A stretch of 41,816 nt of DNA, taken from IMG/VR virus record IMGVR_UViG_2636416136_000011; one strand, given 5' to 3'. The notes beneath the pieces are model-generated. The model saw only the letters and a list, made by a program, of their open reading frames with translations. It had not been told where the DNA came from and did not search any database. Below are positions 23,101 to 28,145 of this stretch, piece after piece. Position 1 is the stretch's first letter. Every line of letters starts with the position of its first letter. Origin of the DNA: a virus (taxonomy: Duplodnaviria; Heunggongvirae; Uroviricota; Caudoviricetes). The position numbers and the translations under genes are program-made.

Positions 23101-23625
23101 TTACCGGGACTGTTCTATTTGTCGGACACCAGCCAACTGGTTATTCGCCTTCTCGATGGCTGCCAACAGTGGGTTAATCCACAGAACAGCCTGGCAATAT
23201 GTCAACGTTCTGGGGGTAGTGGCACGATCACCGGCTGAGTCAATGTCCCCGGAATCGGCGTGCAATGCGCTGGCGCGTAAACGGTTCGCGTAGTTGAGCA
23301 ACCCGACAGCAATATCAACAGGAACAGGGAAATCACAGTTCTTTTCACGGAGCAGAACCTCACGGTATTTGATGACTGTCTTCTCGTGACCGATGTCGAC
23401 CAGAGAATTTAATCGGCTTGCGTTTTCTGCTATCTGGTTAAAACGATTGAAGTTTAATGCCTGATTAGCTATCACTTTCCCTTGATATTCAGCTTCACCT
23501 TCCGCTTTATCAGCCCGCAACTTTTCTGCCTGATACTTGCTGTGGTAATGGTTTGCAGACCAGACGAGCGCCCCAAAGGCAGAGAAGAAAAATGCCGCGA
23601 TGACAATCTTATAAGTCAGCTTCAT
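23101..23625 (-). CDS. Rz-like i-spanin
   Basis: 174 aa with N-terminal TM helix (IVIAAFFFSAFGALVW) then coiled-coil-like region; last gene of the lysis cassette. Confidence 0.5.
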   Translation of the reverse strand: MKLTYKIVIAAFFFSAFGALVWSANHYHSKYQAEKLRADKAEGEAEYQGKVIANQALNFNRFNQIAENASRLNSLVDIGHEKTVIKYREVLLREKNCDFPVPVDIAVGLLNYANRLRASALHADSGDIDSAGDRATTPRTLTYCQAVLWINPLLAAIEKANNQLAGVRQIEQSR

Positions 23626-24085
23626 TTACCACCCCACCAGCATCTTTAAACCTGGAAATCAGGTCACCGATTTTATGTTCATACTGACCGTAACCTGCAC
23701 CAGGTAACGACGCCCAGATATTGCTGCAACGGTCGATTGCCTGACGAATATCGCCACGGTCAATCATCGGTAAAGCGCCACGCTCTTTAATCTGCTGCAG
23801 CGCCACAGCGTCCTGACTTTCTGGCGAAAAATCTTTCAGGCCAAGCTGCTTACGGTAGGCATCCCACCAGCGTGAAAGAAGCTGATACCGGCCTGCGGCT
23901 GTTGATTTAAGCTTCGGGTTTAGCGTGACAAGTTTGCGAGGGTGATCGGAGTAATCAGTGAACAACTCACCTCCGACAATAACGTCATAACCGTGATTAC
24001 GTGTCGGTTGTCGCCCGTTATCCGTTCCTTCTGACCATGCCACCATATCCAGGAAAGCTTTACGTTGGGAATTTAGTGTCTGCAT
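23609..24085 (-). CDS. R: Endolysin, lambda R-type lytic transglycosylase
   Basis: Near-identical over most of its length to lambda R as I recall it (NSQRKAFLDM.AWSEGTDNGRQ.TRNHGYDVIVGGELFTDYSDHPRKLVTLNPKLKST). Confidence 0.9.
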   Translation of the reverse strand: MQTLNSQRKAFLDMVAWSEGTDNGRQPTRNHGYDVIVGGELFTDYSDHPRKLVTLNPKLKSTAAGRYQLLSRWWDAYRKQLGLKDFSPESQDAVALQQIKERGALPMIDRGDIRQAIDRCSNIWASLPGAGYGQYEHKIGDLISRFKDAGGVVNEADL

Positions 24086-24430: not shown

Positions 24431-24530
24431 ACTTCCCACCTCCGCCATTACGGGGTGTTGTTGAAAGGCGGGCCCTGCGTATACGCCCGTAGGATTGGGT
24501 TATGAGCCGTCCTTCGGTGGGCCCTGAATA

Positions 24531-24555
24531 CAAAAAAAGTTCGCCATAGCGAACC
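24531..24555 (-). terminator. Rho-independent terminator in the late leader (tR'-like)
   Basis: Minus strand GGTTCGC-TATG-GCGAAC followed by TTTTTTTG, about 100 nt upstream of the holin start. Confidence 0.6.
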
Positions 24556-24783
24556 TTGTTAAATTTGTTAAAAAAGGAGGTTATTTAACATAATGTATGT
24601 TATAGGAACCACACGATCCCCGCTCGCAATAGATTTGCGATGAAAGGCCTATTTAATCAACTTAAGTGGTCCAGAATGACGAAATTCGAGTGAATAAAAG
24701 GTGCATAAAAAAGGGCAAAAACTGCATAGCGTTTTTTCGCAGCGAAAGCCCTGTTTTATTAACTTTTCCCCAGAATGGGGCAA

Positions 24784-24810
24784 TAAAAAAGGCCCCCTTG
24801 CGGAAGCCTC
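24784..24810 (-). terminator. Rho-independent terminator after the gene that follows Q
   Basis: Minus strand GGCTTCC-GCAA-GGGGGCC followed by TTTTTTATTG, about 65 nt 3' of the 24876 stop. Confidence 0.5.
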
Positions 24811-24875
24811 TTCGTGATGAACTGTTTTCAACGGATATCAGGCTAATCGGCTTTTTGGAATTCCACAACTATTTT

Positions 24876-25217
24876 TTATCTTACCTTGATGCCTGATGCC
24901 GTCAGATGTTTACGACAGTCCTGAATACCTTCGTTATAACCCGCATCGTAGAAGCTATCCGGCTTTGCCTTCAGCGCAGGAAGCGTAACGCTGGTAGCTC
25001 TTCGTTCGGCCAGAACACCTGCCTGAAAGAGTGTCCACATCAACTGAACTGCTGAATCACAGTAAGTAACATCTTCACTGTACAATTCTCGTTCAATCCT
25101 GATGCCAAGTTGAGCCTTCATTGATGCGCTAATATTACCTTTGACCTGCAACGACAGGTCTGGGTACCTCTGTTCCATGAAGCTTTCAAATCTGTTGCGA
25201 ACGCTGATCAGAGCCAT
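24876..25217 (-). CDS. Hypothetical protein between Q and the lysis cassette
   Basis: 113 aa, no motif recognised; 31 bp downstream of Q. Confidence 0.5.
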   Translation of the reverse strand: MALISVRNRFESFMEQRYPDLSLQVKGNISASMKAQLGIRIERELYSEDVTYCDSAVQLMWTLFQAGVLAERRATSVTLPALKAKPDSFYDAGYNEGIQDCRKHLTASGIKVR

Positions 25218-25248: not shown

Positions 25249-25671
25249 TTATGCCGCCGAGCAGCTCCTACGCAAAGTCCTGATAGCCTGAGGCTTTGAC
25301 TGAACCGACTGATCCATTTCGAGCACCACATCCAGCATGGCTAAGCAACCGTCAATAAATCCCTCTGCCGCCTGAAGCCTCTTCAGAACGTGGGTGTGAG
25401 ATACGCCGAGCTTCTCACCCATCGCCCGCACGGGCATGGCCTGGACGTAATGCCACTCAAGGAGCGTGCACAGATACGGATCTTTTTTCTTCAGGCAGCT
25501 CATAGCGGAGTTGATGATAAGACCGTCATTGTCACTGCATTTCAGCCTTCCAGACTGCGTCGCGGGTAGCAGATTCTTAAACCCGGCTGCAACAGGAGGA
25601 AAGTAGACACTACCACCTTCACTCGCTGCCCAGCCACCCCAGCGCTCTAAAACCTGTTGAATATTACGCAT
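25249..25671 (-). CDS. Q-like late-gene antitermination protein
   Basis: 140 aa with HTH-like segment MGEKLGVSHTHVLKRL; directly upstream of the late leader and lysis genes. Confidence 0.55.
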   Translation of the reverse strand: MRNIQQVLERWGGWAASEGGSVYFPPVAAGFKNLLPATQSGRLKCSDNDGLIINSAMSCLKKKDPYLCTLLEWHYVQAMPVRAMGEKLGVSHTHVLKRLQAAEGFIDGCLAMLDVVLEMDQSVQSKPQAIRTLRRSCSAA

Positions 25672-25800
25672 AGCTCTGACCTCTACGTTTTGCTACGAAA
25701 AAATTTTCTGAGAACCACGTTTGTTTATCCGTGGGTGTGGATAACGCAGTTCCGATTCGCTTATTACACGCTGTTATGTGCAAAAAATTCCTTGTTCGGC

Positions 25801-25981
25801 CTGTACCAACCTGTACCCACCTGTACCAGCTCTTTTCAAACCTTTTCCCCAAGCGACTTATATATATATATGGGGTTCTTAGTAATTAGGTTGGTACAGA
25901 TGGTACAGTTGGTACTGGCCTTTAAATTCAATTAGTTAAAATGTACCAACCTCTATTTTGAGGTTGGTACAGGTTGGGACA
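25801..25981. repeat. Iteron-like array of CTGTACC/GGTACAG motifs (candidate replication origin or regulator-binding array)
   Basis: Three tandem 10-bp units at 25801..25830, (TA)6 at about 25859..25870, three inverted units at 25889..25918, a perfect 12-bp inverted repeat TGTACCAACCTC-TATTTT-GAGGTTGGTACA at 25942..25971, and a degenerate copy at 25972..25981. Confidence 0.6.
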
Positions 25982-28145
25982 CCGCCTCAAAAATTCGAGT
26001 CATTTTCCCCCCAATTCGCCTTTGGGCACGCTTATACCCGCAATTTTGCAAAACATTACTAATTCGCATTTCTTCGCGTTTTCCGATGCGGTCAGGATTT
26101 AGCCCAATCGCATCACGCAAAACATCACTTGCGCGTAAAAATTCGCAATTTCGCGGAAGTTCATTAGTCATCAGGTCTGGCGTGTCGAGCCATTTCTCTA
26201 CCGTTTCAAGCCAAGCATCCTTGATGGTGTACTGTTCATGGACACTCGCTGCCAGTTGTTCAGCCTCACGGAACTGGATACCCCCCAGACGCTGAAACAC
26301 CTCACGAGCCTCAGCCCAAAGTAAAAGGAGATCTCTTTTTATCGCTTTCACGTCGACTTTCGACACTTCCACGGGGAGCCAGCGACGGTTACCAGTCTTG
26401 TCCGCAAGGAATTCGTCCTCATTGGTGGTACCAACGAACACCAGGCGACGAGGAAACTGGGTGGCGAACTCCCGGTATTTCGGGATCCAGTTTTCGTGAG
26501 TACGCGTCACAAACGCTTTGATTGACTCCAGCTCTTTGGTATTAAGTCCGCGCAGTTCACCAATCTCTGCCACCAGCCGACCACGCATTTTTCGAGCGAG
26601 ATCATCGTCTTTTTCGGCAAAAGAGATTTCAGTAAAAAACGCAGGATCAGGGCTCAGTGCCTCCACTCCGGAAGACTTACCGCAGCCCTGCGGACCAACG
26701 AGGATCGGCACCATATCCGCTTTGATGCCTGGCTCCAGTACTCGCCCCGCCAACGCGGTCCACATGTACATAGACACCGCACGGGTATAAGGCGTGTCGG
26801 CGGTACCGAAGTGCGTATGGTAGAAACATTCGATGCGCGGCACGCCATCCCACTCCAGTCCGTTCAGCCAAGTGATCGCTGAATCGAATGGTTGTTCATC
26901 GGCTGCAAGTAACACCACATCGCGAATAAGTTCACGACCAACAGGTTTAAATCCCCGCTTTTCCATCGTGATGCGCAGGCGCGCATAATCCGCATCGGTG
27001 AATGCCCGCCATTGTCCGGATCCTGCAGGGGCAAACATGATTTCGTCGCGGAACTGGTCAAAGCGAATATCGATGTCCACAAAATCAGGGCGTACTACTG
27101 CTTTGGCTGCGTTGCTGATTGTTGCCTCGATACGCCCCCATTTATCACGCTCGAAAGCAGGCAGCGGTAAAGGTTCCGCCACTTCGGTGCTGGTCAGATC
27201 TTCGAAATCGTCGTTGCGGATCCCGATGGCATTAAGGAAATCTCCGTCATCACGATGCGCACAACTGGCATGCAGGCATTTAAAATGCCCCTGCTCAAAG
27301 CCCGCGGTTCCCGCAGGAAAATAAACTGTGCTTGTTGGATCGCCCCCGCTACTGTGGCCGTCTTCAAACGGACAGCGGATATATCGTTCACCATTTGCGC
27401 CATCCAGCAGCGTCCAGCCATTGGCATCAAGATATTCAGCTGTATCATCCGTCGCGCCGGGCGTGAATGCTGATCGGTCGCGCATCTTCGTGTTGCCCGC
27501 TTCGGTGGTTACCGACACAGGGAGTTGTTCAGCCAGGCGCTGCCACAGCGTTTCAAGCTGCTCACCAGTAATAGCCGGAGGTTCATCCGGCAAACCGCCG
27601 TCCCATTCAATACGCGCGCCGCTGCTGTGCGTACCGCAGGCAACGAACTGCTGCCCGTTCGCCAGCAACTCGATAATGCCCATATCCCCCGCCAGGCGAT
27701 GGATACGCTTACGGAAATCACCATCAACGGCCAGCAGATACAGACACTTATTACTGTTTGCTCGCCAGCGTCGCGGCGGCAACTCACCCAGAAGTTGCAC
27801 AAGCGTTTTGCGAATATCTGCCTGAATGTCTTCATCTTCGCTATCACAGTCCAGCGCCAGCCAGCCATGGCCTGTACGCACGCAGATGCCATAATCCGGT
27901 TCATTCGACCAGCGGGCAAAATCATGCTCAGTAACAACATGCCCGGTCCATTGAGCAATACCGGTGACCTGGCGGTCCCGGTTATAGCGACTCGGCGTCT
28001 TACCCAACGCTTTCAGTTTACTATCAGGGGATATGGTCGCACTGGGGTTACATACAACTGGGAGAAGATGATCAGTTCTCCCCAATACCAGGTCGAAATG
28101 AAACCACTCATCAGGCGTAGCTCCCCATGGTTTGCTATCGGACAT
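25953..28145 (-). CDS. Primase-helicase (prim-pol domain, zinc ribbon, P4-alpha/VirE-like P-loop NTPase)
   Basis: LALDCDSED and CGTHSSG prim-pol-like motifs, Cys/His cluster (CPFEDGH...CLHASCAH), Walker A VGPQGCGKSS and Walker B-like RLVFVGTTNE. Confidence 0.75.
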   Translation of the reverse strand: MSDSKPWGATPDEWFHFDLVLGRTDHLLPVVCNPSATISPDSKLKALGKTPSRYNRDRQVTGIAQWTGHVVTEHDFARWSNEPDYGICVRTGHGWLALDCDSEDEDIQADIRKTLVQLLGELPPRRWRANSNKCLYLLAVDGDFRKRIHRLAGDMGIIELLANGQQFVACGTHSSGARIEWDGGLPDEPPAITGEQLETLWQRLAEQLPVSVTTEAGNTKMRDRSAFTPGATDDTAEYLDANGWTLLDGANGERYIRCPFEDGHSSGGDPTSTVYFPAGTAGFEQGHFKCLHASCAHRDDGDFLNAIGIRNDDFEDLTSTEVAEPLPLPAFERDKWGRIEATISNAAKAVVRPDFVDIDIRFDQFRDEIMFAPAGSGQWRAFTDADYARLRITMEKRGFKPVGRELIRDVVLLAADEQPFDSAITWLNGLEWDGVPRIECFYHTHFGTADTPYTRAVSMYMWTALAGRVLEPGIKADMVPILVGPQGCGKSSGVEALSPDPAFFTEISFAEKDDDLARKMRGRLVAEIGELRGLNTKELESIKAFVTRTHENWIPKYREFATQFPRRLVFVGTTNEDEFLADKTGNRRWLPVEVSKVDVKAIKRDLLLLWAEAREVFQRLGGIQFREAEQLAASVHEQYTIKDAWLETVEKWLDTPDLMTNELPRNCEFLRASDVLRDAIGLNPDRIGKREEMRISNVLQNCGYKRAQRRIGGKMTRIFEAVSQPVPTSK

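Follow-up and report, generated by a model that had tools for sequence, protein, structure and literature searches.

In phage lambda, the late promoter lies just beyond the antiterminator gene Q, with the Q-binding element (QBE) over the promoter and a terminator close downstream; polymerase modified by Q reads through this terminator, and an S-type dual-start holin is the first late gene. Here we describe the interval between a Q-like gene and a holin gene in IMG/VR virus record IMGVR_UViG_2636416136_000011, the whole 41,816-nucleotide stretch of which is referred to below as the window. Comparison with related loci suggests that this interval is probably a lambda-like pR′-qut-tR′ late control region served by the adjoining Q, with a putative late promoter directly after the stop codon of a 113-residue gene, orf113. 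The late-control logic, and an S-type dual-start holin as first late gene, would be shared with lambda.

Two other described systems are close to this locus. In Shiga toxin (Stx) phages, PR′ was mapped 258 nucleotides (nt) upstream of tR′ by differential RNA sequencing (dRNA-seq) and Term-seq, the PR′ transcript is cleaved by RNase E between GU and AUU at +173, and the PR′-tR′ RNA is an Hfq-binding small RNA (sRNA) that activates rpoS (PMC7547250). In phage 82, dimeric binding to the QBE has been proposed for the Q protein, 82Q (PMC4914094), and polymerase pauses at +25 from PR′, with a −10-like element at +9 to +14 (PMC5001585).

The window was 100% identical to E. coli chromosomes, for example those of strains F11 and BH100, and is a mosaic lambdoid-type E. 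coli prophage. Its minus strand reads, in order, VapE-type primase, Q, orf113, a non-coding stretch, holin, endolysin, Rz-like spanin and terminase, the non-coding stretch between orf113 and holin measuring 445 nt. The Q-like gene, the 113-residue open reading frame, two terminators and the holin ribosome-binding site, all listed in an earlier sequence-only reading of this DNA, were found where it had put them, on the minus strand. The antiterminator gene is:

25249..25671, minus strand: Q, antiterminator, 140 amino acids (aa), PF06530 (Phage_antitermQ), phrog_79

The Q protein matched PF06530 over positions 1-118 of 118, as determined by hmmscan (E = 5e-42, 143 bits, cut-off 26), and also matched phrog_79, 'anti-termination protein Q-like'. 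An hmmscan against Pfam-A gave no match to PF03589, the lambda Q family. Identity was 42-47% to the Q proteins of Stx1 and Stx2 phages, a 434B mutant phage record, APSE-2 and mEp390, while the match to the solved Q21 structure was weak only (E = 0.13). Q belongs to the Stx-phage Q family PF06530, and not to the lambda Q family. The sequence-only reading had likened the interval to lambda pR′-qut-tR′; the comparison supports a late control region beside Q, but one whose Q is of PF06530 where that of lambda is of PF03589.

That reading had been unable to place a late promoter. Comparison with about 200 related loci (numbered with an L below) now puts a putative pR′ at 24868-24840, directly after the orf113 stop codon, with the following elements:

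24852..24869, minus strand: conserved 18-mer GTTGTGGAATTCCAAAAA, which holds the −35 and the palindrome
24868-24863, minus strand: −35 hexamer TTGTGG
24865-24856, minus strand: palindrome TGGAATTCCA, putative Q-binding element
24840..24845, minus strand: −10 hexamer TAGCCT, 17 nt after TTGTGG
24821..24836, minus strand: initial transcribed region, with the start predicted at about 24836-24832 by homology with Stx PR′
24826-24821, minus strand: candidate sigma70-dependent pause element AACAGT, −10-like, at about +8 to +13
24785..24813, minus strand: terminator 1, the first tR′, GAAGAGGCUUCC-GCAA-GGGGGCCUUUUU, with a 7-bp G+C-rich core and U6

The palindrome overlaps both the −35 and the spacer of pR′. 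Homologues of orf113 were retrieved at 45-85% identity and their genomic loci were then looked up. The identical 18-mer stood directly 3′ of the homologues' stop codons in Escherichia, Rahnella, Yersinia ruckeri and one metagenome contig, and its core, TTGTGGAATTCCAAAA, was unchanged in loci found by protein homology alone (L069, L072, L073, L074, L124, L213 and L151-L154). The exact 18-mer occurred in 49 IMG/VR contigs. Forty-two of them had Q just upstream, 61-100% identical to the window Q, and one was truncated upstream and had the same leader. The other six (L075, L076, L091, L094, L111 and L123) were unrelated, represented two coding contexts at about chance level, and were set aside. 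At least 18 of the 18-mer loci had no orf113, the end of Q lying about 25-45 nt before the 18-mer. When loci were instead retrieved independently, by similarity of the Q protein, every match of at least 66% identity had the 18-mer downstream, and it was kept down to 61-71% Q identity, with or without orf113. This indicates that the motif tracks the Q clade and not orf113. The pR′ stretch carried no annotated feature in 11 of the 12 E. coli matches listed, out of 94 genomes with the module.

A family survey covered 62 more distant Q loci from other genera, together with phage loci. At the same position, other Q clades carried other palindromes, namely GCGGTCCGC, TTCGTWACGAA (W = A or T), TGCGTTACGCA, GCGTACGC and, in an Stx1 phage, TTTACGATCGTAAA; TTCGTTACGAA was a further one. 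Each was followed by an A/T run, a −10 reading TAnnnT at the aligned position (TAATCT, TAGTCT, TAACCT, TATCAT and others), the block TG(T/A)TAAGAGTGGTYAC..CAC..GCTTA, and then a hairpin, AACCTCGC-loop-GCGGGGTTTT. Q clade and palindrome class agreed for 61 of 62 nearest neighbours, whereas shuffled labels agreed for 16 on average and for 29 at most. Since the palindrome found at this position changes with the Q clade, it is probably the Q-binding element. A more speculative and rather unlikely reading is that such palindromes over the −35 amount to a readable specificity code for PF06530-family Q proteins. That of the window would fit binding by a dimer, as for 82Q, phage 82 being compared by its literature description only.

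The published transcript map provides an anchor for this family. Both Stx distances, to tR′ and to the RNase E site (PMC7547250), put +1 of the Stx1-converting phage at L005:1957, the A of ..GATAAG-A-GTGG.., 7 nt after TATCAT. The mapped Stx1 PR′ start coincides with the conserved block, so that for one member of the family, at least, the block is the actual late promoter. By this analogy, transcription in the window would begin some 7 nt beyond the −10. The initial transcribed region of the window, GATATCCGTTGAAAACAGTTCATCACGA, differs from the family consensus TGTTAAGAGTGGTYAC. AACAGT retains the A and T equivalent to −11A and −7T, and lies 14-19 nt after the −10, compared with 13-18 nt for TACATT in the Stx1 phage; its position at about +8 to +13 compares with +9 to +14 for the −10-like element of phage 82. 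Identification of the pause element by homology was given up, as this region of the window's clade aligns poorly with the family block, and AACAGT stays a candidate.

Two side observations concern the same stretch. A C/T polymorphism at window 24834 (minus strand, GATATC[C/T]GTTG), at or next to the predicted start, was seen among otherwise identical E. coli and IMG/VR copies. In six loci with 143-aa Q variants (L080, L093, L097, L105, L109 and L116), the Q frame reaches within 1 nt of the −10 region, so that the 3′ end of the gene runs across the palindrome and −35 of the very promoter that Q targets.

Terminator 1 folded with a 12-pair stem and a minimum free energy (MFE) of −17.2 kcal/mol (z = −2.4, RNAfold). 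It was not found by the pattern scanner, a miss that we attribute to extension of the stem consuming the U-tract. The end of its stem lies 49 nt after the −10 TAGCCT. A strict terminator 49-73 nt (median 60) after the −10 was present in 30 of 40 related loci, compared with 13 of 174 control windows, and the position of the hairpin was kept while its sequence varied between clades. These data suggest that terminator 1 is the family-typical first tR′. The predicted leader RNA is about 48 nt long, compared with 194 nt to the first terminator in lambda, and the window has several terminators. The distal part of the leader holds three further features:

24705..24759, minus strand: extra long hairpin (GGGC...GCCC) with U6, possible intermediate terminator
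24579..24618, minus strand: conserved block GATC..GTGGTkCC.ATAAC.T.CATTATGTTAAAT, containing TATAAC (24604-24599) and CATTAT (24595-24590)
24532..24557, minus strand: terminator 2, AAGGUUCGC-UAUG-GCGAACUUU, with a 9-bp stem and U7

The hairpin at 24759-24705 folded at −22.5 kcal/mol (z = −2.6), and a 53-nt core of it shared 87% identity with intergenic sequence that immediately follows a gene in Yersinia phage YP3. Terminator 2 had an MFE of −10.4 kcal/mol (z = −3.7), was matched by 0 of 200 shuffles, and was called by the scanner. The two minus-strand terminators of the sequence-only reading (24784..24810 and 24531..24555) were thus borne out, with folds at 24813-24785 and 24557-24532. Terminator 2 and the hairpin at 24759-24705 would form additional barriers before the lysis genes. 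In L069, homology to the window stops after AACAAATT (24562), a mosaic breakpoint just before terminator 2, and cargo genes follow there instead. This assigns terminator 2, together with the last 100 nt, to the module on the holin side.

The conserved block upstream of terminator 2 offers a different location for the late promoter, at TTGCGA/TATAAC (24629-24599) or at CATTAT (24595-24590). A short RNA would then run to terminator 2, TGtTAAATA would act as an extended −10-like pause element, and terminator 1 would just end the primase-Q-orf113 operon. Both TATAAC and CATTAT match the −10 consensus better than TAGCCT does, CATTAT-GTTAA resembles the family's TAATCT-GTTAA, and the end of the terminator 2 stem, 54 nt after CATTAT, is within the family range. 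The block with CATTATGTTAAAT is moreover conserved in three phage contexts (window 24579-24618, L069:3590-3640 and L129:1501-1555). However, the genes that follow it are MptE-like and methyltransferase genes in L069 (Escherichia sp. E1130) and higB2 in Yersinia phage vB_YpM_39, as would be expected of a cargo promoter and not of a qut site. The block is absent from L072-L074, L077 and other loci of the Q clade that retain the 18-mer, and no conserved palindrome or −35 precedes CATTAT. The pair TTGCGA-19-TATAAC was rejected as pR′, since its spacer, at 19 nt, is overlong, neither hexamer survives in L069 (an 85-91% relative), and the block is unlinked to Q clade. In phage mEp390, the unit of 18-mer, −10 and terminator stands away from the Q end, just upstream of the lysis genes, so that this unit is not merely the end of a Q operon. 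We therefore consider a late promoter in the distal block quite improbable; the block at 24618-24579 may be a promoter for cargo genes, and would not be a Q-dependent late promoter. In the window, terminator 2 comes very soon after the block, an arrangement that resembles a cargo cassette with nothing in it.

Between Q and pR′ as placed at 24868-24840 lies the gene:

24876..25217, minus strand: orf113, 113 aa, ATG start, phrog_343 family, putative PF26207 (Phage_phiTE_015)

It starts 31 nt after the Q stop, with a Shine-Dalgarno sequence, AAGGGA, 5 nt upstream of the ATG. Its product is RefSeq WP_001174015.1, termed 'hypothetical' or 'phiTE_015 family protein', the latter being the name given to the identical protein by PGAP. 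Residues 5-112 matched phrog_343. Its probable membership of PF26207 comes from precomputed hits on homologues 82-98% identical, hits on more distant homologues being marked weak; hmmscan of orf113 against Pfam-A, where the model is perhaps absent, gave no match. The motifs VQLMW and PDxxYDAGYNEGI were conserved in the family. The ratio of non-synonymous to synonymous substitution rates (dN/dS) was 0.07 against L069, and 0.05-0.09 among Rahnella/Yersinia-type homologues. By this measure, orf113 is a real gene under strong purifying selection. The 31-nt gap after Q held only the Shine-Dalgarno sequence and no promoter-like site, so orf113 seems to close the Q operon as its final gene, and not to be a classic moron. 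Since pR′ is downstream of it, orf113 lies upstream of pR′ and outside the late leader.

The gene is not always present. In phage vB_EcoM-689R2, a 286-bp out-of-frame deletion (window 24928-25213) leaves a 9-codon stub, with the sequence downstream almost identical, and three sister phages gave the same two-piece match, for four sequenced phage genomes with the deletion. Of 94 complete E. coli genomes that carry the pR′ module, 62 had orf113 at full length and 4 had only a remnant of it, and many loci of the same Q clade were without it. These comparisons suggest that orf113 is a dispensable, non-essential passenger of the Q operon. Of the earlier suggestion that it is cargo in the Q-to-S interval, what stands is a dispensable accessory gene at that site; its position upstream of pR′ and its lack of an own promoter set it apart from a classic moron. 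Frameshifted or truncated orf113 was also seen in some E. coli prophages (L089 and L121, where tblastn covered residues 40-114 only), and a 58-aa N-terminal product (P0045) is on record on 85 contigs. Such truncated forms probably explain why the protein is split in PHROGs into phrog_37465 (N-terminal) and phrog_15831 (C-terminal). The 'head closure' label of phrog_15831 was rejected for orf113, as it concerns the C-terminal half only and is not credible at such a gene position.

Searches for a function of orf113 were negative across the resources used. No family match was found in Pfam-A or NCBIfam, a PDB sequence search gave no match, and its structural model had no informative fold match, BFVD returning uncharacterised phage proteins only. 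A profile search recovered 45 homologues, all named 'hypothetical', and a literature search for phiTE_015 found no papers. Binding of orf113 to the palindrome TGGAATTCCA was considered and rejected, as at least 18 loci without orf113 still have the palindrome that goes with the Q clade, and the model has no DNA-binding fold.

What stands out is the position of the family. In 13 of 13 contexts, an orf113 homologue lay between Q and the lysis genes, and the Q genes were of four Pfam families: PF06530 (window, L069, L072-L074, L124 and L213), the lambda-type PF03589 (L125 and L126, with Vibrio phage Pm34 by size and annotation), PF06576/DUF1133 (L127 and L212) and PF06323 (L211). Examples in which the homologue precedes pR′ are the window, L124 and L213. 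In L126 and L127 it comes after a promoter-like sequence and a terminator, which take up the 130-nt gap behind Q. The arrangement could mean that orf113 works as a partner in the late switch, for example as a modulator of Q loading, termination/Rho or lysis timing. Purifying selection on it is strong, and, just before pR′ or just after, its expected time of expression would be about the same. However, it is deleted in the four phage genomes, missing or broken in about a third of the E. coli prophages with the same Q and pR′, absent from many same-clade Q loci, and without a DNA- or RNA-binding or other informative fold match. The junction between Q and the lysis genes is also a general cargo hot spot, occupied in relatives by methyltransferases, a lipase-like hydrolase, HicAB and tRNAs. 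We thus regard such a partnership as unlikely. A dedicated 'late-switch junction' factor, tuning termination/antitermination or lysis timing and kept beside four Q families on either side of pR′, is an equally doubtful form of the idea, and orf113 is thought not to be a component of the antitermination machinery.

The position of orf113 may reflect an early-to-late function, or equally a cargo hot spot; as the gene is so often lost, the hot spot is favoured. Our best guess is that its product acts at the early-to-late transition, on the host, a defence system or lysis timing. The positional conservation of the family is the only mildly novel point here. In many other members of the family, the conserved late-promoter block was found 0.6-2.3 kb downstream of Q (L004, L008, L011, L012, L014-L016, L018, L023, L039 and L046), with genes in between; in phage mEp390 one such gene is gp47, on the reverse strand. 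A Q gene parted from its promoter by cargo thus seems to be common in the PF06530 family.

The closest parallels to the window were found in Stx phages (Sakai Sp5/Sp15 and the Stx1-converting phage NC_004913, with a 144-aa Q), whose Q proteins are of the same family, PF06530, at 42-44% identity. Like the window, these have a palindrome over the −35, a TAnnnT −10, an early hairpin with a U-tract and a distal terminator before the late genes. Cargo between the terminators and lysis genes is shared between Stx phages and relatives of the window. The palindromes differ (TGGAATTCCA in the window, TTTACGATCGTAAA in Stx phages), as do the initial transcribed sequences, and the distal terminator lies at about +300 in the window against +258. 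The window also differs in having orf113 between Q and the promoter, and in having no toxin or tRNA genes. The two-terminator layout has a parallel in the Stx1 phage, where a hairpin with U7 (L005:1984-2006) occupies roughly +30 to +55 of the mapped PR′ transcript, far short of the mapped tR′ (+258). The published work on StxS describes the 258-nt species only (PMC7547250). Either this early hairpin is a poor terminator, or short products were missed.

With StxS as precedent, the short pR′ RNAs of the window, of about 48 nt to terminator 1 and about 300 nt to terminator 2, might also act in trans as regulatory sRNAs in the lysogen. The Q family and the architecture of promoter, early hairpin and distal terminator are as in Stx phages, and the longer RNA, where it ends at terminator 2, would carry an A/U-rich stretch, a hairpin and a U7 tail. 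However, no similarity to the Stx leader or to StxS was detected (a distant blastn search with 24431-24800 found no Stx phage), there was no Rfam match, and the leader between terminators 1 and 2 is conserved among close relatives only. A role as sRNAs is therefore very doubtful.

Several points weigh against the assignments made here. Each pR′ hexamer matches its consensus at only 3 of 6 positions, and the promoter scanner made no call there. In a 3-kb scan, 4 terminator-like sites were found against 3.2 expected from shuffled sequence, which is not significant alone, and the weight of evidence therefore falls on the comparison with relatives. The agreement between Q clade and palindrome would also be expected from physical linkage alone. 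The initial transcribed region departs from TGTTAAGAGTGGTYAC, so that the pause element AACAGT is a guess. The promoter, start site, pause site and QBE are all predictions from homology and conservation, and the parallel with phage 82 takes its Q to be a member of PF06530, as we presume. As for orf113, none of the results points to any one function. The phages with the deletion (vB_Eco) are assumed to be viable, from deposits of complete genomes under virion-type names.

On balance, we are fairly confident that the interval is a lambdoid late control region of the ordinary kind, with a Q of the Stx-phage type, and with Q binding, pausing and readthrough as its predicted steps. Early transcription past the primase gene would express Q and orf113 together. 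Without Q, polymerase starting at about 24833 would stop at terminator 1 and release the leader RNA of about 48 nt, by analogy with lambda, phage 82 and Stx phages. Any polymerase that escaped would meet the hairpin at 24759-24705 and then terminator 2 (24557-24532), and as a result holin, endolysin and spanin would be silent in the lysogen. Upon induction, Q, probably in the dimeric form suggested for 82Q, would bind the palindrome and load onto polymerase paused early in the leader, perhaps at AACAGT. The Q-loaded polymerase would resist all terminators and read the late operon, with the dual-start holin first.

The late operon is preceded by a structured leader, and opens with the lysis genes:

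24431..24531, minus strand: holin 5′ leader, with a GGGCCC...GGGCCC structure, the element GACGGCTCATAACCCAATCC, a stem-loop by the Shine-Dalgarno sequence, and GGAGG
24511-24492, minus strand: conserved 20-nt element GACGGCTCATAACCCAATCC, which recurs in L060 and L088
24089..24430, minus strand: lambda-S-type class I holin, first late gene, PF05106 (E = 1e-27), phrog_126
23609-24085, minus strand: endolysin, phrog_90
23101-23625, minus strand: Rz-like spanin, phrog_214

The holin has the dual start M-K-M, ATG-AAA-ATG from 24430, which is also the start assigned by PGAP. GGAGG (24443-24439) lies 8 nt before this ATG, and a stem-loop was predicted just upstream of, and overlapping, the Shine-Dalgarno sequence. 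The leader as a whole folded at −38.3 kcal/mol, with a z of only −1.55, which is not significant. The 20-nt element, GACGG(G)CTCATAACCCAATCC, was found shortly after intrinsic terminators in the window (24492-24511), L060:3040-3060 and L088:8610-8630, in prophages that are otherwise unrelated. It resembles a tRNA-Met anticodon arm, yet ARAGORN called no tRNA there or elsewhere in the window, and alignment to real tRNA-Met genes was poor. The stretch 24531-24431 was thus rejected as a tRNA or tRNA remnant, on the absence of an ARAGORN match, the poor alignment to relatives' tRNA-Met and the z of only −1.55. Rfam gave no family in the leader, the E-value mode returning sub-threshold matches of the terminator-hairpin type only. 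Intact tRNA-Met (CAT) genes do stand directly after the first late terminator in L077:5194-5271, L205:1008-1084 and L207:1986-2065, a placement that resembles that of the tRNA genes downstream of tR′ in Stx phages.

Upstream of Q, the neighbouring gene is:

25953-28145, minus strand: VapE-type primase

At the F11 locus, it is preceded by a LexA-family repressor and then a helix-turn-helix (HTH) protein. A short-repeat array was observed between primase and Q (window 25800-25975, minus strand), with units of the TGTACCAAC type (one, then three direct copies) and three inverted units of the GGTACAGG type, on either side of an AT-rich run, tatatatatata. It looks like an iteron-type replication origin for the adjoining VapE primase. 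The scanner's 'terminator-like' site at 25971-25942 is an inverted pair of repeat units of this array.

For annotation, the analysis places a putative late promoter and terminators that had been unannotated, and assigns orf113 to the Q operon instead of the late leader. Nothing in this would surprise a phage specialist, as the control region is of a known kind. What emerges for PF06530 phages is a late-promoter grammar, in which a clade-specific palindrome over the −35 is followed by a −10 of the form TAnnnT, then by a conserved block at the start of the transcript and, some 60 nt further, by a terminator. This grammar could locate PR′ in other prophages, including those of Stx phages, where PR′ controls toxin release, and could help to test how Q proteins choose their sites. 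The occurrence of the phiTE_015 family beside unrelated Q genes gives a concrete handle on a widespread protein of unknown function.

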